DNA from: Candidatus Marinacidobacterales bacterium
GTDB taxonomy: Bacteria; Acidobacteriota; Vicinamibacteria; Marinacidobacterales; DATDRI01
Direction: 5' to 3'
Length of the DNA stretch: 64,000 bases
Assembly: GCA_965219415.1 (NCBI GenBank)
Contig: CBDCNP010000001.1
Coordinates: 192,001-256,000, forward strand
The stretch's first letter is position 1, and each line of letters starts with the position of its first letter. A program made the translations under genes and the position numbers. The notes beneath the pieces are model-generated. The model saw nothing but the letters and a program-made list of their open reading frames with translations, was not told where the DNA came from and searched no databases. Below are positions 13,447 to 52,191 of the stretch, piece after piece.

Positions 13447-16269
13447 CTATTCTTCAGCCGCCAATTCCAGAAGCCGTGCCCTGGTTTCGGCCGACCAGCC
13501 GGAGTGGGCTTCGATGACGCGGCCCGCCTCGTCGACGAGAAGGGTCAACGGCACGGTGAGTTGCGGCGACGCGTAAACCTTCATGATGTCCTTCTCATCG
13601 AGCAGGACATTCGTATAGCGGATCGAGCGCTCCTCGAGGTAAGAGAGCGCGGTATCCCGCTGCCCGAAATCCAAGCTGATACCGATTAGATCGACGCCGG
13701 CGGCGGAGAGTTTATCTTGAAGCCGCGACAGCTCGGGCATTTCGACGGAGCACGGGACACACCAAGTCGCCCAGAAGTTCACGACGGTCTTTCGCCCTGG
13801 CTTCAAGAGGGAACCGAGCGTGACCGTGGACGGCGACGACGACGATAAACCCGTCAACGAAAGCTCGGGCAGGACCTCGCCTTTTCGAAAGGCGAGACTA
13901 TGGAAAAGTTGTTCCGACGCCGGCTCGGGGTCGGGCAAGCTTCGGAGTCGCTCCGAAACCACCTCGACCGTCCCGGTTCCCTCCACGAGCCGCAGGCTTT
14001 GACCGGCGCGGACATCACGGTACGTCTCCACCAAGCCGGAGGGCCAGGTCACCGCAAGCTCGTAGCTTTCATGCTGGCTCGAGGGAGGGCCGAGCCCGAA
14101 GACCAGCCGTGGATCGCCAGCGGAAACGAATCCGCTACCCCCCGACTTGATCTTGGTTTGGGTTCCTAGTGGCGTCCGCACACGGACCACGGTCCCGAAA
14201 GCATCTCGAGCCGACTTCGTTCCCACTAGACTCACCCGGAGGAAGCCGTTTTCTTGCCCGACGTTGTTCCGATAGAGAAGCCGCCCTTCGTTTTGAACCG
14301 GCACCACCACGACGTCCAGATCTCCGTCGTTGTCGAGGTCCGCGAACGAGCAGCCCCTGCCATCCCCGATGGAGTCCAGACCCGAAACGCCAGAGATCTC
14401 GAGGTAGCTCCCGTCTCCCCGATTCAAATACAAACCGTCGCGCTCGAAACCACTGAATGACAGGCCCTTTTCGAAGAGCTCGGTCATGTGATGGTTCTGG
14501 TAATCAGCATTCCCCGCCTGCTCGACTTTAGCCGCGGCCGCCACCACGTGGCGCCAAAACAGACTTCACGTGTCTTTCATGGTCTTGCCAGACACGAAGC
14601 CGTTGACGGAGAAGGCATCTTCCCAGCCATCGTTGTCCAAATCGAAAAACCCGCCCCCATATGCCCAACCAGCGCCAAACCCTCCGGCACGCTGCGCGAC
14701 GTTCTTGAACGTACCGTCACCTTGATTTTCGAAGAGCGAGTTGCCGGCGGCGAGTTTCTTGAGAACCACTCCATCCGGGGTGGCGTCGGGCATGAGTCTC
14801 TTCAGAATGCGATTGCCCGCAGTCGAGGACATGTTCGTCACGTGGAGGTCCAAGTCACCGTCGTTGTCGTAGTCCCCGAAGGACACACCCATGCCGTTGC
14901 CGGGATCGACTACACCTCTTTGTACGGCCTCGTCGCGGAAGTGGTCGCCGTAGTTCACGTAGAGAGCGTTCTCGCCGAAGTCGTTCGCCACGTACAGATC
15001 CTGGTGCCCGTCGGCGTTCACGTCGGCAAACGCGGCCGCGTAGCCCCATCGCGAATCATCGACCCCCCACTTCGTCCCGTCCTCTCGGAAACGGCCGTTA
15101 CCCTGATTAATGAAAAGAAGATTGGGCGTTCCGTTGCTTGCCCTGCTCCAGGAGTTGGGCATCACCTGGCCGTAGAGATTGTAGGAAGTGACATAAATGT
15201 CTGTCCACCCGTCTCCATTTACATCCGCCGCCACAGCGCTGAAACCTACCGCTCGGTGGTCAACGCCCGCCTCACTGGACACATCCAAGAAGCGAAGCTC
15301 CCCGGTGGGCTGCAACTGGTTTTGAAGCAAGCTCTGTTCTCCGACGGCGGCAAAGAAAATGTCCAGGTCCCCGTCGTTGTCGTAATCGAGGAGGAGCGTT
15401 CCCGTTCCGTCCCGGCTATACCCGACGAGCGTTTCCTCAGAGACATCGCGAAACGGACCCTCCCATTCGTTCAGAAACAATCGATTTCCCAGAACCCCAC
15501 TCGTCACGATGTCGAGCAAACCGTCGTCGTTGACATCGCCCACCGCCGCACCATGAGCCTTGAAGCCGTCGTTGGGAGGCTCGCCGAAGGCAGGCACGCC
15601 CTCCCACAGCCCGGCGGGTCGAGTCACATCAGAAAACAGATCCTCCTCGGACAGCATGCTTTCAAGCGACTCGAACGACCAACTCCGAACGCTCCACAGC
15701 TCTTCGGGCGCTCTGTCTACACGGAGCCGAATCCATCCACGTACCCATTCGCGCCGGCCCTTCCCGTCGCAGCCTACCACAAAGAAGAAGACGCGGCTTT
15801 CGCCGCGAGTCGGCGTACCGCTGTCGAACTCTGCCGCTTTCACTTTGAGGCGGACGTCCTCGATTTCGGTGAAATGAGACAGAAACGCTTCGATACCTCC
15901 AAGGAAGTCGGCGCGGTCGATTATCTTGGGAACCGTGTTGAGATCCCAGCCGTGCCGGCGGATCCACTTGATGTCGTGCTGAACGGCACCCGACCGAGTG
16001 GGGAATAAAGTGGCCTCGAACTCCTCGGGAAAGTATTTTGCGGCCTTCCCGAGGTCTTGTCGGCGAAGTACGACCGACAAATCCAAGAGCTGGTTCGCGA
16101 GCGACTCTGAATCGTCCTCGATCTGCTCGAGCGCGGCGCGATCGAGCTCGAGAGAAGGCCGTTCCTGAGCCCCGACATCGCTGGAACGGAGGCAAACGAG
16201 GAATGCAAGTGCTACCGCCGCCGGAACGGCGACGCGGCCTCTCCCACGGAACGACGCGCTAGCTAACAT
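13447..16269 (-). CDS. Predicted selenoprotein: exported FG-GAP/CRTAC1 beta-propeller plus ASPIC/UnbV plus TlpA-like thioredoxin domain (~940 aa, Sec568)
   Basis: ORFs 14566-16269 and 13447-14547 are in the same frame and separated only by TGA (14566-14568) and six sense codons. DxDxDGxxD repeats occur on both sides; C-terminal WATWCVPC; SECIS-like hairpin follows the TGA. Confidence 0.75.
14530..14565 (-). promoter_or_regulatory. Putative bacterial SECIS element
   Basis: UGA-AGUCUGUUUUGGCGCCAC[GUG]GUGGCGGCCGCGGCU: 6-bp upper stem CGCCAC/GUGGCG, G-first loop 18 nt after UGA, lower stem AGUC/GGCU. Confidence 0.65.
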
Positions 16270-16505: not shown

Positions 16506-17630
16506 TCAAAATTTGTAGTTAAAGTCGAATCGGAATCGGCTTCCATCTTGGATGGTGGTGATGGCATCTACAATGTACAGGCGCGCGAGCAAGAGCATGT
16601 TCTTCACCGGCGCATAGCCGCCGCGGATCTCGTGACCCTGGAAATCACTGGCCGCGGTCTGCGTCTGGTTTCCGAATCGAAGCCAGTCGTCTTCGGCATA
16701 CGAGGCGTGCACGGCAAGAGTCTCTATCCACGCGTAGTAGTAGCCGATCACGAAACCTCCGAGCTTGCTAGGGTTGCCAAACCGGACCGACGCCACCGCC
16801 CCAGTCTTTTGATCATGGTTCGCCGCGGTAAAAGGATCCGGATCATTTGGAGAGTAGCTCTTGAGATTGTACGCTAGGTCGAGCCCCAGCGTCATTGGAA
16901 TCCTAGTTGCGAATTTGGCTTGGATGTCACCCGTCCACAGGTCGTAGTCGCGCGCGCCATTGCCATCGAGCAGGTTTCGGGCGCCCTTCTCACCGAGTAG
17001 AAAAAAAGGCCGGTCGCGAAGTTGAAGTTGGCACTGTTGCACTTCCTGCCGTAAACGACCTGTCCCGCTACCATGTTCCCTACGAAATGATCCATGCCGT
17101 CGGCGTTGAAGTAGAAACCGCCAATCAGCGAGAGTCGAGCGTTTTCAGGCTTGAAGTCATGCCGGCCGGTGAACCCAGCCACCGTGACGTCGTCGTCCCA
17201 GAAGAGCTCGTTCTGTTTCCAAAACGGCTAGCTATTTCGGCCCAACCAGGCCGAGCTCCGCTCGCCCTTGATCTGAAAGTAGTACTTGTCGAGGAGCAAG
17301 TCTCTCGGCCCTTTCGGGCTGCCTTCGAAATCGTTGGATGGTGATATGGGGAGACTGCTGAATTTCCCAGGCGCCCGTTCGGAACCGCACTCCAAAGGAG
17401 AACAAGGGAGCCGGTCGGTAGTCGAAGCCGATGCGAGCCCGAATCCGGAGACGCTGGCGATCCGCTCTCTCAACCCCACTCACGCGTTCGGAATCGAAAT
17501 CGTCCTCGAACCGAAAACGAAAATCTCCATAGAGGCCGATCTTGCCGGCTTCATCCAGCTTGATCTCGGCGAGAGCCGGGCCGGGCATGAACAGAAAAAG
17601 GAGGCCCGCCGAGAACCATGTCCAGAACAT
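16506..17630 (-). CDS. Putative outer-membrane porin (several frameshifts)
   Basis: Signal peptide; GDFRFRFE...RQRLRIRARIG; beta-strand pattern ending in aromatic C-terminus FRFDFNYKF; three ORF pieces. Confidence 0.7.
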
Positions 17631-17769
17631 GATTCGCCAGGCGAGGAAAATTTCAGACCCTCTTGTCTTCCCTGCAGTCTCCCCCACAATGTGGCTCCTC
17701 CAGATAGTTGTCTGCTCTTTCGGGGCGCGGCTGGCCCCTGCGGGTTAGCTTGTCACGCTTTGTCGCCCT

Positions 17770-17958: not shown

Positions 17959-18062
17959 GAGTCTGCTTGGACGAGACACCGCCTTGGGTATTGTAGTCAG
18001 CGGCGCCCGAGACGTGAGACAATCCGCGGACTTGGATGTCTCACGTTCGGGAGGTGCCCCTG

Positions 18063-21000
18063 ATGTTACCCAATCGTTCGAGCCGTATCGCCCTCTGGGC
18101 TGGTCTTTTCCTTAGCTTGGCGCTCATTCCACCGGGCCTGGCGCAGGAAACGCCAGAGGAAGAGCCAAAGGAAGAAGACAAGGGCCTACCCCTCGAGCCG
18201 ACCCGTAAAATCGAGTTCGTCACCGACGAGGCCACTTGGCTGTCTCTCGACGTCTCGCCGGACGGCCAGACGATCCTCCTCGAACTGGTCGGTGATCTCT
18301 ACACGTTGCCGATCGAGGGTGGAGAGGCGATCCCCATTTCCACCGGTCTCGCCTTCGATAGCCAGCCAAAATACTCTCCCGCAGGTGACCGTATCGCGTT
18401 CGTAAGCGATCGCGACGGGGCCGAAAACGTTTGGACCGCTCGCGCCGACGGCAGCGAGCCCAAGAAGCTCAGCCAGGACACGCGCGCCGACTTCGCCTCT
18501 CCGACCTGGACGCCCGACGGCGAATGGGTCGTGGCCTCCCGCTCGTCCTGGGGCCTCGGAACGTTCGAGATCTGGATGTACCACGTCGACGGAGGGGCCG
18601 GCGTGCAAATCACCAAGGCCAAGCCGAAGCCCGAGACGCCACGCAATCAACGACACAATGCCATCGGTGTGGTGGTGTCTCCAGACGGGCAACATTTCTA
18701 CTACGCGCGAAAGATGGGCGGCTTTCAATACAACGCCAACTTCCCACTCTGGCAGATCGCGCGCCGAGACCAGGTGACGGGCGACGAAGACATACTGACG
18801 CAGTCTCAAGGTAGTGCCATCCGCCCGCTCTTGTCTCCAGACGGAACCAAGCTGGTTTATGGCACGCGTTTCGATGCCGAGACCGGTCTACGCCTCCGGA
18901 ATCTGACGACGGGCGAGGACCGGTGGCTCATCCATCCTGTGCAAAGAGACGACCAGGAGTCCCGGTTCACGCGCGACCTGCTTCCTGGATACGCCTTCAC
19001 TCCCGATGGAAGCGAGATCATCGTGACCATCGGCGGCAAGATCCACCGCGTGAATGTCGAGAGCGGTAACTCACGCGTCATTCCATTCAGCGCCACGGTG
19101 TCTCAGGAGCTCGGGCCGAGACTTCATTTTCCACGCCGCGTCGAGGAAGGGCCGGTGCGTGCCCGTATCATCCAAGACCCCGCAACCTCGCCGGATGGGG
19201 AGCGGGTCGCGTTTTCGGCGCTCACCCGGATCTACGTCATGGAGCTCCCGGACGGCTCTCCACGCCAGCTCCTTCCCGGTGAAGCTCGAGGCTTCCAGCC
19301 CGCTTGGTCGCCGGACGGCCAGTGGCTCGTGTACGTGACCTGGTCCGGCGAACGCGGTGAGGGAGGGCAGATTTGGAAAGTGCGAGCCGACGGAACCGGC
19401 AACCAGCGACTTACGACCGTCCCGGCTTTCTACAGCGATCCGGTTTGGGCCCCGGATGGCTCGCGAATCGTTGCGCTTCGGAGCACGCTTCACGAGCGGC
19501 TCACAAGCCCCGTCGATTTTGGGCAAGTCACGGGATTGGACGTCATCTGGATCCCGTCTGGCGGCGGCGATGCGAACCTCGTCATTCCCGCGCGGGGACT
19601 CGGCAAGCCTCACTTCACCGGCGACCCGGAGCGGATCTTCCTGTACTTTGCCAGCACTTTCGGAATGAACCCAAAACATGGTCTCGTTTCGCTCCGATTC
19701 GACGGCACCGATCGACGAGAGCACCTTCAACTGACTGGCCCGGGTCCTTACTTTGCCGAGGAGCCGGTGGGCGCAGACGACATGCGTGTCAGCCCGGACG
19801 GGCGTTGGGCTCTGGCGCGCGTCGGCAACCAACTCTATCTCGTAGCGGTGCCGCCGGTGGGCGGCGCTGCTCCGAAAGTCAACATCGAAAAACCCGCCGT
19901 TCCGCTCAAGAAACTCACCAACATGGGCGCGGATTACTTCGGCTGGTCCGACGACGGGAAGACCATCGCCTGGGCGATCGGATCCACCTTGTTTCGCCGC
20001 GCCCTCGACAGTGTCGTCTTCGATCCTCCCAAGCCTCCCAAGAAAGAAGAGGAAGACTCGGAGGACAAGGCCGACGAGGAGGAAGAGGACGACACACCGC
20101 TGGAGGAGGAAAGTGAAGTCGTCGACCGGATCGACATCGTCATCGAACGGCCTCGACACGCCCCTAAGGGGACCGCGGTGTTACGCGGCGGCACCGTCGT
20201 CACAATGAAAGGTGACGAAGTGATCGCCGATGCCGACATCGTGGTCCGCGACAATCGCATCGTCGCCGTCGGCGCGCGCGGCGAGGTGGACGTCCCCGCG
20301 GATGCCAACACCATCGACGTTAGTGGTACGACCATCGTTCCGGGGTTCATCGACACGCATGCCCATTGGTTCGAGATACGCCGCGGCGTGCTGGACGTCA
20401 TGAACTACAGTTTCTTGGCTAATCTCGCCTATGGCGTGACCGCCGGCCTCGATGTCCAAACGAGCTCGAACGATATGTTCGCTTATCAGGATCTCGTGGA
20501 CATCGGAGAGGGCAAGGGCCCCCGTGCCTATTCGACCGGCCCGGGAATCTTCTCCAATAACGCCTTCAAGAACGTGAAGGAGGCCAAAGGGGTCATCTCT
20601 CGCTACAAGAATCACTACCGCACGAGGAACCTCAAGTCCTACGTCGTGGGCAATCGGAAGCAGAGGCAGTTGATGGTACAGGCCGCCCACCAGCTTCAGA
20701 TGATGCCGACAACGGAAGGTGGACTCGATCTAAAGCTCGACCTCACTCACGTCCTAGACGGTTTTTCCGGCAACGAGCACAGCTTGCCCATTGTGCCGCT
20801 GTACAAAGATGTCGTGGAGCTCGTCGCGCGTTCGGGGATCGGCTATACACCGACTCTTCTCGTGGCATACGGCGGCCCGTGGGCGGAGAACGACTTCTAC
20901 ACGGCAACTGAGGTGCATGATGATGCGAAGCTGCGCCGCTTCCTACCGCACAACATCGTGGACGCCAAGAGCCAAAGGCGCCCGTGGTTTCGCCGCGATG

Positions 21001-21419
21001 AGCACGTTTATCCCAAGATCGCGGCGGCAGCGGCCGAGATCATACGGGCGGGCGGCTACGTCGGTATTGGAAGCCATGGCCAGCTCCAGGGCCTGGGCTA
21101 CCACTGGGAGATGTGGGCGCTGGCGAGCGGTGGCTTGAAACCGATGGAGGTGCTCCGCGCCGCGACGCTCCACGGTGCCCAGATCATCGGCCTCGCGGAG
21201 GACTTGGGAAGCATCGAGCCGGGCAAGATGGCCGACCTGGTGGTGCTGAACAAGAATCCTCTCGAGGAGATTCGGAACACGAACAGCGTGCGGTATGTCA
21301 TGAAGAACGGCGAGTTGTTTGATGGCGACACTCTTCATCAGATCTGGCCGAAGGAAGAAAAGCTCGAACCAATGTGGTGGTGGGATGCCGAACCAGTAAC
21401 GGAGAGTGGAGGGTTTTGA
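18063..21419 (+). CDS. Exported amidohydrolase with PD40/TolB-like beta-propellers
   Basis: Signal peptide, repeated SPDG motifs, PGFIDTHAH, GSHGQLQG and GSIEPGKMADLVVL. Confidence 0.9.
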   Translation: MLPNRSSRIALWAGLFLSLALIPPGLAQETPEEEPKEEDKGLPLEPTRKIEFVTDEATWLSLDVSPDGQTILLELVGDLYTLPIEGGEAIPISTGLAFDSQPKYSPAGDRIAFVSDRDGAENVWTARADGSEPKKLSQDTRADFASPTWTPDGEWVVASRSSWGLGTFEIWMYHVDGGAGVQITKAKPKPETPRNQRHNAIGVVVSPDGQHFYYARKMGGFQYNANFPLWQIARRDQVTGDEDILTQSQGSAIRPLLSPDGTKLVYGTRFDAETGLRLRNLTTGEDRWLIHPVQRDDQESRFTRDLLPGYAFTPDGSEIIVTIGGKIHRVNVESGNSRVIPFSATVSQELGPRLHFPRRVEEGPVRARIIQDPATSPDGERVAFSALTRIYVMELPDGSPRQLLPGEARGFQPAWSPDGQWLVYVTWSGERGEGGQIWKVRADGTGNQRLTTVPAFYSDPVWAPDGSRIVALRSTLHERLTSPVDFGQVTGLDVIWIPSGGGDANLVIPARGLGKPHFTGDPERIFLYFASTFGMNPKHGLVSLRFDGTDRREHLQLTGPGPYFAEEPVGADDMRVSPDGRWALARVGNQLYLVAVPPVGGAAPKVNIEKPAVPLKKLTNMGADYFGWSDDGKTIAWAIGSTLFRRALDSVVFDPPKPPKKEEEDSEDKADEEEEDDTPLEEESEVVDRIDIVIERPRHAPKGTAVLRGGTVVTMKGDEVIADADIVVRDNRIVAVGARGEVDVPADANTIDVSGTTIVPGFIDTHAHWFEIRRGVLDVMNYSFLANLAYGVTAGLDVQTSSNDMFAYQDLVDIGEGKGPRAYSTGPGIFSNNAFKNVKEAKGVISRYKNHYRTRNLKSYVVGNRKQRQLMVQAAHQLQMMPTTEGGLDLKLDLTHVLDGFSGNEHSLPIVPLYKDVVELVARSGIGYTPTLLVAYGGPWAENDFYTATEVHDDAKLRRFLPHNIVDAKSQRRPWFRRDEHVYPKIAAAAAEIIRAGGYVGIGSHGQLQGLGYHWEMWALASGGLKPMEVLRAATLHGAQIIGLAEDLGSIEPGKMADLVVLNKNPLEEIRNTNSVRYVMKNGELFDGDTLHQIWPKEEKLEPMWWWDAEPVTESGGF

Positions 21420-50206: not shown

Positions 50207-52114
50207 TCAAAGGATCACGCGCTCGCTGCCCACTCTCCGCGTCACGTGCTCTCGGTCCAACCACTCCAAGAGTGGAATGGCGTGCTTTCGAGTGACGCCC
50301 GCCAGATCCTTGAAGAAGGCGACGTCGATCTTGGGCCTTTTTTCCTTCTGCTGCTGCACGGATTGCTTCAACTCTTCGAGGGCGTCGCGATGAAAAACCA
50401 TGCCTTCGGCTACCTTGACCAGAGTCCCTTCTTGGGTGAGGAGGCGTGCGATCCGCTGGAGAAGTTTCAGATCGCGGCGGTTCTTGGAAGCGATTTCCGC
50501 CAACGCGGGCGGTTGATAGCGGGCCTTGAGGAACGTATCTCCGAGGAACGACCAAGCCTCCGCTTCCTCCGAAGACAGCTCGATACGATGGTCACTCGTT
50601 GCCACCCAATCCTTGACGGCTCGAAGCTTTCCGTTCTCGACCATACGACCGAGCGACCATTCGAAAACCTCCAAGCGTGCACGCGCCGTCGCCTTTTCTC
50701 GGAGCTCGCCCCGGGGCATTCCCTCACGCAACGGGTTGGCCTTCTGAAACGACTTCAGCTCCATTAGTATTTGCGCCGAGATTTGCTCGGCCGTCTCCGG
50801 TGCTAGAAACAACAGCGGTTTTTCCGAGACCCGAAAGACTCGTTCGTTCGAAAGCAGAACTTCGACGAGCTTCGCCAGGGAGGCGTCGTCGATACCGAGT
50901 CGTCGCGCCAAAGCGGCACCATCGAGACCGCGCGGACCCGATGTGGCTATGAACAGCGCGCACGCTTCGACTCGATCGCCCGACCGGAGCGCAGCGAGCC
51001 GCTCCACCACATCACGGCTAGTCACCGAGTGCTTCGGGGGGGATGGATCGAGGACTCGACCTCCTCCCAACGTCTCTAGAGGTGAGTAGCGTCGAATGAT
51101 GAATCGATCCAAAGCGGCGGCGACCACCGGCGTCTCGAGACGAAATTGAACGAGTGCGTGCGTCCCTGGAGCAACCGTGCCTTGGTTCCCTAAGACCCTG
51201 ACCCGGGCCACGGCGACGGCGGTCCCGATGTGGAGATGCACCCTCGCCAGATCTTTGACAGGGGTCGGAGACGATGCCAGGACCTCGAGCTCCGCATCCA
51301 GCATCAGACTGGGGAGCAGAGTACCGGGGCGCGCCAGAGTGTCTCCCCGCACCACTTCGCTCATCTCGATGCCCTGCAGATTGACGGCAGTTCGTTGACC
51401 GGCGAGCGCGCGATCTTCGGCGGCACCGTGTACTTGCAACCCGCGCACGCGGGCCTTCGTACCACGGGGCAGAATTTCCACCTCCTCATCCACCGCGAGG
51501 CTGCCCGAGGTCAACGTGCCGGTAACGACTGCCCCGAAGCCCTTCATCGTGAAGACTCGATCCACCGGTAGACGAAAGAGACCGTCGGCCGGACGGCTGT
51601 CGACTCCGGCGGCGATATCGAACAAGACACGTTTCAGCTCATCGATGCCCGCACCGGTTTTCGAAGAGACGTAAATCGTTTGGGCTTCTTCGAGGAAGCT
51701 ACCTTTGGCCAGCTCACTCATTTCCATGGCCGCGATCTCCCGGAGCTCCGGTTCAACCAAGTCCACCTTGGTAATCACCACCACGCCCTTTTTCACCCGA
51801 AGGAGACGGCAAATCTCGAAGTGCTCGCGAGTCTGAGGCATCACCGATTCGTCGGCCGCCACGACGAGCATCACCATGTCGATGCCGCCGGCACCCGCCA
51901 GCATGTTTTTTACGAAACGCTCATGCCCCGGAACATCGACGAACCCGAGGGTAATTCGTTCGGGGTCTGTTAAGAACGCGAACCCCAAGTCGACAGTGAT
52001 TCCCCTCTCTTTTTCCTCCTTCAACCGGTCGGGGTCGGTGCCGGTGAGGGCGCGCACCAACGCACTCTTGCCGTGATCGATATGTCCTGCGGTACCCACG
52101 ATGACATGTTTCAT
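50207..52114 (-). CDS. selB: Selenocysteine-specific elongation factor SelB
   Basis: [44 protein letters not shown]; C-terminal winged helix [15 protein letters not shown]...R. Confidence 0.96.
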
Positions 52115-52191
52115 GGCGTCTCCACGACATGATAGCCGACCGGCAAGGGCGGTTAAACCCTGTGCTATCATGGGATCACAAAGAGGTGTTC

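Follow-up and report, generated by a model that had tools for sequence, protein, structure and literature searches.

A probable selenocysteine codon in a CRTAC1/ASPIC-type propeller protein with a fused TlpA-like domain, the likely mark of a multi-phylum bacterial family

Comparative sequence analysis and structure prediction support the view that a UGA codon interrupting a gene of Candidatus Marinacidobacterales (Acidobacteriota) is very probably decoded as selenocysteine (Sec). The gene occupies positions 13447 to 16269 of the minus strand of a 64,000-nucleotide (nt) stretch of contig CBDCNP010000001.1 (assembly GCA_965219415.1), hereafter called the window, and consists of 940 codons, one of them for Sec, plus a stop, from an ATG at 16269 to a terminator at 13447 to 13449. 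Translated with table 11, it falls into two open reading frames (ORFs) in one shared frame, 14566..16269 (567 amino acids [aa]) and 13447..14547 (366 aa). When TGA is translated as Sec (U), the whole interval is open, and its only TGA is codon 568, at 14566..14568 on the minus strand (T at 14568), with the flanks KTMKDT-TGA-SLFWRHVVAAAA. An earlier reading of the DNA letters without database searches (the sequence-only reading) had noticed two ORFs in one frame split only by a TGA, and this holds, with the gene on the minus strand. We conclude that the interval is almost certainly the gene for one exported protein of ∼940 residues. Because the codon is conserved, the stem of a hairpin behind it covaries, and the Sec machinery is present, we propose that the UGA is decoded by SelB and tRNA-Sec, guided by a selenocysteine insertion sequence (SECIS) 11 nt downstream.

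The TGA is not an assembly error. Contigs from three studies cover positions 14200 to 14900 without differences, and a fourth, covering 14200 to 14599, shows none; some of the runs behind those contigs may be the source sample. Reads and contigs confirm the codon. Matches with E values of ≤1e-30 were present in 15 of 41 related genomes, and every match that extends over the site contains a single TGA. The orthologues are 63 to 91% identical over their full length, in both halves, with one TGA each, and the TGA column is shared by all 21 related loci, orthologues and paralogues together. These form three groups: 13 of 13 orthologues with the motif KDTUSLFWRHVV; 6 of 6 paralogues (∼33% identical) with KDLUSFFWRQVV and a TPR tail; and 2 of 2 loci with GD[ST]US[TI]FWRAV. 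The genome of the window itself carries a paralogue, 34% identical, with a TGA at the same aligned place (TKDL-U-SFFWRQVV). In generic FG-GAP/ASPIC paralogues without the TGA, the whole Sec-bearing insertion is absent.

Six codons (S-L-F-W-R-H) separate the TGA from the earliest possible restart; their protein sequence is conserved, and third bases change synonymously (AGU/AGC, CUG/CUC/CUA/CUU, and UUU/UUC). Since the S-L-F codons, which precede any restart codon, vary at synonymous positions only, the ribosome must read through. Fifty-four full-length relatives without Sec span the site, and the non-Sec paralogues have open frames of 579 to 724 aa with no internal TGA, from which it follows that TGA is not generally reassigned.

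The predicted SECIS hairpin lies at 14537..14555 on the minus strand, with a 5′ arm at 14548 to 14554 (GCGCCAC), a loop at 14545 to 14547 (GUG), a 3′ arm at 14539 to 14544 (GUGGCG), and an outer pair, G14555:C14537, beyond a G·G mismatch. A spacer of 11 nt (14555 to 14565), which overlaps the outer pair, separates it from the UGA, and the loop begins 18 nt after the UGA. The sequence statements of the sequence-only reading hold, among them the CGCCAC/GUGGCG stem and the GUG loop 18 nt downstream. The stem has 6 to 7 bp and a folding energy of −12.6 kcal/mol. According to section 5 of PMC13188914, bacterial SECIS elements (bSECIS) are recognized by a loop of 3 to 9 nt, a G in the first two loop positions, a spacing of 16 to 37 nt, and a minimum free energy of ≤ −7.5, and the window hairpin lies within all four of these limits. 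An Rfam search of 14300 to 14800 with E values up to 10 gave no match and hence no bacterial SECIS family.

Two features of the hairpin evidence count against Sec decoding. Taken by itself, the sequence has an unremarkable fold (z = 0.37; 126 of 200 shuffled sequences fold as well), and the pattern used for the genome scan described below fixed hairpin columns 1 to 6, 10 to 17, and 22 to 24, which leaves columns 18 to 21 and 25 to 31 as free evidence. Because the single-sequence fold is ordinary, the significance of the hairpin and the codon comes only from comparison. For this we used an alignment of 129 distinct ungapped rows of 42 nt, each starting at the TGA. A perfect 6-bp stem, in either of two registers, is formed in 111 of the 129 rows, five of the six pairs in 13, and fewer in 5. 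All scored loops contain GU (GGUCG, 63; GUG, 18; GUC, 12; GGUC, 10; CGUGA, 5; GGUCA, 2; AGUCG, 1), and the stems comprise 18 different sequences. The free pair between columns 18 and 28 occurs as GU (40), CG (25), AU (24), GC (13), and UA (11). The covariation score was 0.233, versus 0.108 in shuffled alignments (0 of 500 as high). With the commoner register applied to all rows, 79.7% of cells were paired, versus 72.4% after shuffling (again 0 of 500 as high), and when the 3′ partner was slid, only 30 to 65% of cells paired. In pair 18-28, the Arg codon contributes its wobble base, and the partner is the first position of the codon for the eighth residue after Sec (S, P, T, or A); the RNA constraint therefore reaches the protein sequence. 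The hairpin is thus conserved, which the sequence-only reading had named as a test, and it shows compensatory changes.

The arrangement resembles that of Escherichia coli fdhF, in which the UGA is followed by 11 nt and GGUUGCA-GGUC-UGCACC: the spacer is the same, the stem has 6 to 7 bp, and the loop is of the GGUC type. In most members of the propeller family, however, the loop is one nt nearer to the UGA, and the fdhF stem carries a bulged U, of which we saw no equivalent in the family hairpin. The proteins are unrelated; the Sec of the fdhF product ligates molybdenum (PMC13188914), whereas the propeller protein has no cofactor domain.

Decoding at fdhF needs SelA, SelB, SelD, and tRNA-Sec, all of which are present in the genome of the window. 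One tRNA-Sec gene was found with aragorn, and selB, encoding the Sec-specific elongation factor, lies in the same window at 50207..52171 on the minus strand, not adjacent to the propeller gene (TIGR00475, 376 bits versus a cutoff of 242.25), where the sequence-only reading had placed it. The genome carries selA (569.7 bits) and selD (328 bits) outside the window. The selD gene (G000:C3:3889655-3890587, plus strand; locus L121) has one in-frame TGA of its own, which fits known Sec-containing SelD. Among the 41 related genomes, 38 have selB above the cutoff, the exceptions (G002, G004, and G007) being 91, 73, and 83% complete. Of the 13 related genomes with the TGA form, 11 have it, and the other two are 91% and 73% complete. 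It was also found in five of five more distant genomes with a Sec form and in five of five with a Cys form. Since selB is nearly universal among the relatives, asking whether the Sec form is confined to Sec-capable genomes, as the sequence-only reading had suggested, is uninformative: the machinery is complete in the genome of the window, and the comparison across genomes does not discriminate within this order.

We scanned one genome per species, for 185,579 species, with a degenerate D-x-TGA-S-x-F-W-R-x-V pattern and obtained at least 119 matches in at least 118 loci. At least 116 of the 119 listed matches have an open frame for 45 codons upstream and 60 downstream of the site, and at least 112 also have an upstream Dx[DN]x[DN]G-type motif, which marks them as family members; three matches (L132, L186, and L199) hold other stops. 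The 114 loci listed by phylum fall in Planctomycetota (50), Acidobacteriota (36), Verrucomicrobiota (20), Latescibacterota (2), Myxococcota (2), and Bacteroidota (1), with 3 unassigned. As a control, the TGA of the pattern was replaced by TAA or TAG; the 16 matches obtained lie in unrelated taxa, and none is a family member. Replacement by TGY (TGC or TGT) gave 43 matches, including 19 family members. Diverged forms such as locus L040, which reads EDT-TGA-VLFWNSVV and has its own hairpin, escape the pattern, and the counts are therefore lower bounds. An earlier protein-level scan of contigs was dominated by the thioredoxin pattern VNFWATWC and yielded only L039 and L040 as relevant loci. The expectation that the TGA would be conserved across homologs was thus borne out in all close and distant Sec-type forms found. 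On this evidence the gene likely belongs to a large multi-phylum family, marked by D-x-U-S-x-F-W-R, that is absent from the current catalog of prokaryotic selenoproteins. In two Pirellulaceae members (L137 and L157) a Cys stands directly before Sec (D-C-U), a place held by L, T, S, or I in the other listed members.

Domain searches and AlphaFold2 (AF2) modeling of the joined chain place the UGA inside a continuous domain. An FG-GAP β-propeller with Dx[DN]xDG calcium-binding-type loops extends over 14260..15564 on the minus strand (approximately residues 236 to 670) and spans the Sec codon. Pfam detected FG-GAP_3 (PF13517; 132 bits in five stretches) and FG-GAP (PF01839), both above their cutoffs, and the repeats flank the TGA on both sides (DLDNDGWED before, DLDNDGDLD after), in accord with the earlier observation that they continue across the stop. 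The model, built with a 52-row alignment, has a mean predicted local distance difference test (pLDDT) score of 90.5 and a predicted template modeling (pTM) score of 0.89, and its propeller runs through the Sec site. Sec is the first residue of a modeled helix (568 to 579) that forms, with a second helix (588 to 600), a helical hairpin inserted between blades; this insertion, residues 568 to 600, is encoded at 14470..14568 on the minus strand and contains the D-x-U-S-x-F-W-R motif from Sec onward. The propeller is followed by an UnbV_ASPIC domain (13993..14202, minus strand; residues 690 to 759; PF07593, 49.4 bits versus a cutoff of 23.4) and by a TlpA/ResA-like thioredoxin domain (13495..13881, minus strand; residues 797 to 925), which scores above the cutoffs for Redoxin (51.9 bits) and AhpC-TSA (50 bits) in Pfam. 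Its CVPC motif, within WCVPC, lies at 13750..13761 on the minus strand and comprises C837 and C840, as the sequence-only reading had noted. The top Foldseek match of the model was murine CRTAC1 (9etn_A; E value, 6.8e-27; TMt, 0.74; 606 aligned columns). The last domain matched ResA/TlpA chains (TMt, ∼0.8) and, by phmmer, the TlpA chain 1jfu_A (E value, 1.1e-12). These matches agree with the initial description of the protein as FG-GAP/CRTAC1-ASPIC-TlpA.

Table 1 of a 2026 review (PMC13188914), in the portion of that paper available, counts 119 prokaryotic selenoprotein families, including those known from GenBank annotation only, and none of the 119 there has an FG-GAP, ASPIC, or CRTAC1 domain. 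The terms FG-GAP, ASPIC, propeller, CRTAC, and VCBS are absent from the main texts of that review, of BSepDB (PMC13326102), and of deep-Sep (PMC12013277), whose supplements may bear on the matter, and FG-GAP, ASPIC, and propeller are absent from the main text of the Global Ocean Sampling (GOS) survey (PMC2398784). A full-text literature search returned no relevant selenoprotein with FG-GAP and no relevant selenocysteine paper with ASPIC, CRTAC1, UnbV, or VCBS, and the accessible part of a paper on planctomycete selenoproteins (PMC4807772) names none of the propeller kind. NCBIfam models gave subthreshold TlpA/ResA-type scores on the last domain of the whole protein only, with no match to the propeller. 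The claim that the family is undescribed therefore agrees with NCBIfam and with that portion of the 2026 catalog. Published prediction pipelines require Cys homologs among the top matches (PMC12013277); the propeller family would mostly fail this filter, which may explain why it was overlooked.

An ordinary stop codon, between two adjacent genes or within a pseudogene, would agree with the two ORFs that table 11 yields and with the lack of a U at the site in the sampled full-length database representatives. Judged by comparing sequences, it is effectively refuted: all 21 related loci and at least 112 other genes across phyla have the TGA at the same column, and protein conservation reaches the codon from either direction; none of the six conserved codons that follow the stop is a start codon; full-length non-Sec relatives exist; and the modeled propeller is continuous and confidently folded. 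Bacterial Sec insertion is inefficient, and some truncated product is to be expected, so that one might instead suppose near-cognate read-through, or mainly termination with a 567-residue product and the full protein made occasionally, as a regulatory device. We regard this as very improbable in view of the fdhF-like spacing, the GU loop, and the stem-specific covariation, of a stop that is always TGA and never TAA or TAG, and of a genome with all Sec genes in which TGA is not generally reassigned. Furthermore, the 567-residue product would, in the AF2 model, be a propeller cut before its last blade. A different kind of doubt is that the family is a genuine selenoprotein family already described in supplementary tables, BSepDB entries, or GenBank annotations. 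The S9 Table of PMC4807772 (candidates from two Planctomycetes) or Table S2 of PMC12013277 could list it, and the family is common in surveyed marine Planctomycetota and Verrucomicrobiota. Given the negative results for the propeller family in the catalog, the main texts, the full-text search, and NCBIfam, we think prior description improbable.

To see which residues occupy the Sec position in relatives without Sec, we ran a profile of this region against 1.84 billion representative sequences. It gave 3,922 matches at E values of ≤1e-30; 150 of these were listed, and 54 span the site in one stretch. The column holds S in 13, D in 9, E in 7, N in 6, A in 6, C in 4, Q in 3, M in 2, and R, G, L, and I once each, or 12 different residues overall, and neither U nor X occurs among these 54. 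The sequence-only reading had expected Cys elsewhere, which proved mostly wrong, and the customary pairing of Sec with Cys is therefore weak in this family. Four residues (S606, S482, A484, and E609) are stricter in Sec forms than in the others, with S606 conserved in 98% of Sec forms versus 34% of the rest. The near-invariance of these four is confined to Sec forms, and they may be lining the site in which Sec lies. The two motifs around them, N-M-S-S-x-A-G-x-R (residues 479 to 487; ∼14809 to 14835) and S-x-S-G-x-E-R (residues 604 to 610; ∼14440 to 14460), are family-wide.

A FastTree phylogeny was built from 161 rows (111 with U and 50 without), each having at least 200 residues before the site and, beyond it, at least 200 in Sec forms or 170 in database representatives. 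On this tree the exchange between U and non-U required 17 changes, compared with a mean of 42.8 after shuffling; well-supported branches force 13 of the 17. U is present in every major clade. In eight loci of Bryobacterales/Terriglobia (L260, L264, L265, L274, L277, L295, L297, and L298) the site is TGC or TGT; these Cys forms retain a perfect 6-bp GCGNCG-GGUCG-UGGCGC hairpin and have a thioredoxin region without CxxC, and selB persists in their genomes. Their hairpin looks like a fossil SECIS, and the presence of such a hairpin in many Cys forms suggests that the change ran from U to C. Because U occurs in all major clades, the number of changes is low relative to shuffling, and a SECIS-like hairpin is kept in Cys forms, Sec looks ancestral in this subfamily and seems to have undergone many losses, most of which also removed the CxxC or the entire thioredoxin domain.

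The presence of Sec goes with that of an intact CxxC in the thioredoxin domain. The motif is at the thioredoxin position in 16 of 16 related Sec forms and in 93 of 99 evaluable distant listed Sec forms (contig ends truncate another 17). It occurs in 6 of 50 listed non-Cys representatives, the remainder being 20 without the domain, 16 with no Cys there, and 8 with one Cys, and in 2 of 4 listed Cys representatives. In the tree set, an aligned CxxC is found in 104 of 108 Sec forms versus 8 of 50 non-Sec forms. Of 13 independent contrasts between U and non-U, 9.7 showed the CxxC changing in the same direction as U and 0.1 in the opposite direction, and in 3.3 it stayed unchanged (median sign-test P value, 0.002).

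From the position of Sec, this co-occurrence, and analogy, we consider a redox relay between Sec and the CxxC the most economical mechanism and about an even prospect. Sec568, at the N-terminus of a helix in the insertion between blades, would act as a redox-active nucleophile in the periplasm and react with an oxidized substrate. The selenol would then be restored through a selenenylsulfide with the CxxC (C837/C840) of the fused TlpA-like domain, which a CcdA/DsbD-type membrane reductase would in turn rereduce. The N-terminus of a helix is the usual place of a nucleophilic redox residue. That the protein's own TlpA domain could keep its Sec reduced had been suggested from the letters alone; the joint occurrence of Sec and intact CxxC lends this indirect support, and the relay itself we infer.

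Several observations speak against a catalytic relay. Five Sec forms (L135, L147, L173, L174, and L219) have no CxxC, so that the coupling is not strict (a sixth, L148, ends early), and 6 of the 50 non-Cys forms keep the motif. Among the Cys forms of the TGY scan, only 2 of 18 evaluable ones have CxxC, and the others belong to one Bryobacterales/Terriglobia group. Some calls of a missing thioredoxin domain in database representatives may reflect truncated predictions, and the tree is a FastTree estimate for a repeat-rich protein. Cys stands at the Sec position in only 4 of the 54 listed non-Sec relatives, which is atypical for a catalytic Sec and implies that a working scaffold needs no chalcogen at this place. 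The S-x-F-W-R motif is conserved equally in non-Sec forms and is therefore structural, giving no evidence of catalysis. Finally, no conserved neighbor, ccdA, dsbD, or other, emerged when 574 neighboring ORFs from 136 loci were clustered.

These points leave room for a Sec that is real and noncatalytic, serving soft-metal or other ligand binding or forming a structural or regulatory selenenylsulfide, with the thioredoxin domain attending to another client. TlpA-type proteins service the cysteines of copper sites, which counts in favor of this explanation, as do the 12 different residues tolerated at the site, a surrounding motif conserved with or without Sec, the low number of Cys forms with CxxC in the TGY scan (2 of 18), and a search for catalytic partner residues in which only S606, S482, A484, and E609 stood out as stricter in Sec forms and none was identified as a partner. 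Nevertheless, Sec and an intact CxxC were gained or lost together in ∼10 of the 13 independent contrasts, Sec sits at the N-terminus of a helix, and a purely structural role would leave unexplained why so costly a residue is retained across at least six phyla. On balance, we hold a noncatalytic Sec, the chief alternative to the relay, to be rather unlikely.

Comparison with known proteins sets the propeller family apart in each of its domains. Like CRTAC1 and other ASPIC-UnbV proteins, it has an FG-GAP propeller followed by UnbV_ASPIC (phmmer E value, 1.3e-19), but identity to CRTAC1 is only 20%, and CRTAC1 is not a selenoprotein. CRTAC1 aligns by phmmer to residues 238 to 490 and 617 to 748, not to residues 491 to 616, the segment with Sec and the helical hairpin, and it lacks both the N-terminal α+β domain described below and the thioredoxin domain. 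The C-terminal domain shares the thioredoxin fold and a W-C-x-P-C motif with TlpA, ResA, and CcmG, which are stand-alone membrane-anchored proteins, whereas here the domain is fused. Its scores fall far below the NCBIfam equivalog cutoffs (TlpA, 64.2 versus 230; ResA, 52 versus 170), and it is therefore TlpA-like and not a TlpA ortholog. Catalogued UGC TlpA and UxxC Redoxin/thiol:disulfide interchange families (Table 1 of PMC13188914) likewise have an exported TlpA-like domain in Sec-using bacteria. In those families, however, Sec replaces a Cys of the CxxC, whereas the propeller protein has an all-Cys CVPC and carries Sec ∼270 residues upstream in another domain; the NF041054 WAxxUGC_long model scores 38 bits on it, versus a cutoff of 300. 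In an Acidobacteriota metagenome-assembled genome, a thioredoxin-like NFWASW-TGA-GGC with a hairpin after the TGA (L040:1455-1560, plus strand) lies within ∼2 kb of the family member at L040:3001-5079 and looks like a catalogued WAxxUGC/UGC-type TlpA selenoprotein.

A functional parallel to the proposed relay is offered by fusions of a TlpA-like domain with a single-Cys reductase, such as the Neisseria PilB protein (Trx-MsrA-MsrB). The logic would be shared: in the periplasm, a fused thioredoxin-like domain restores a catalytic Cys or Sec located at the N-terminus of a helix. The likeness is functional only; propeller and Msr domains are unrelated in sequence and in fold. A link to MsrA through its GCFWG motif was considered and rejected because of the different spacing and because non-Sec forms conserve F-W-R too.

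The remaining parts of the protein lie upstream of the propeller. A probable Sec-pathway signal peptide at 16168..16269 on the minus strand (approximately residues 1 to 34) can be read from RGRGR, a hydrophobic stretch, and VGA/QE. In the AF2 model, pLDDT is below 50 at residues 1 to 14 and 27 to 36, with a lone helix at 15 to 27. An N-terminal α+β domain follows at 15625..16152 on the minus strand (approximately residues 40 to 215), modeled as helices at 44 to 79 and a long curved sheet at 83 to 207 with pLDDT values of 88 to 96. Residues ∼40 to 215 matched no Pfam or NCBIfam family, and this unclassified domain is common to many relatives, including non-Sec ones.

Around the gene, NCBIfam and Pfam searches of seven neighboring ORFs were uninformative. 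In the clustering of neighbors, the C-terminal half of the gene itself made up the largest cluster, followed by one that resembled antisense ORFs. Two short ORFs upstream on the same strand, at 16506 to 17042 and 17232 to 17687 of the window (both minus), may be one porin-like gene in two pieces, the second having a weak match to Porin_5 (18.5 bits, below the cutoff). Farther on, at 18036 to 21419 on the plus strand, an ORF of 1,127 aa has TolB-like propeller repeats (residues 72 to 229) and an amidohydrolase domain (714 to 1094).

The propeller family adds a widespread group to the prokaryotic selenoproteins, with at least 112 species-level genomes in at least six phyla, and it is abundant in Planctomycetota, Verrucomicrobiota, and Acidobacteriota, phyla with few known selenoproteins. 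Gene callers split the gene into two ORFs, and annotation is therefore wrong at this locus in many genomes. Sec lies here outside any thioredoxin-type motif, in a CRTAC1/ASPIC-type propeller, and the scarcity of Cys relatives exposes a blind spot of prediction methods that pair Cys with Sec. The repeated joint loss of Sec and the fused CxxC amounts to a directly testable hypothesis on function.

We tentatively suggest, as a possibility with the odds somewhat against it, that the family is an ancient Sec-dependent extracytoplasmic redox enzyme on a CRTAC1-type propeller, in which sulfur cannot functionally replace selenium. If so, lineages that lose Sec would let the redox module, Sec site and CxxC together, decay, mostly without a switch to Cys, and would keep the binding scaffold. 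This would be a rare selenoprotein family defined without Cys homologs and would give a CRTAC1/ASPIC-like propeller its first catalytic role, and it would account for the failure of Cys/Sec-pairing pipelines to find the family.

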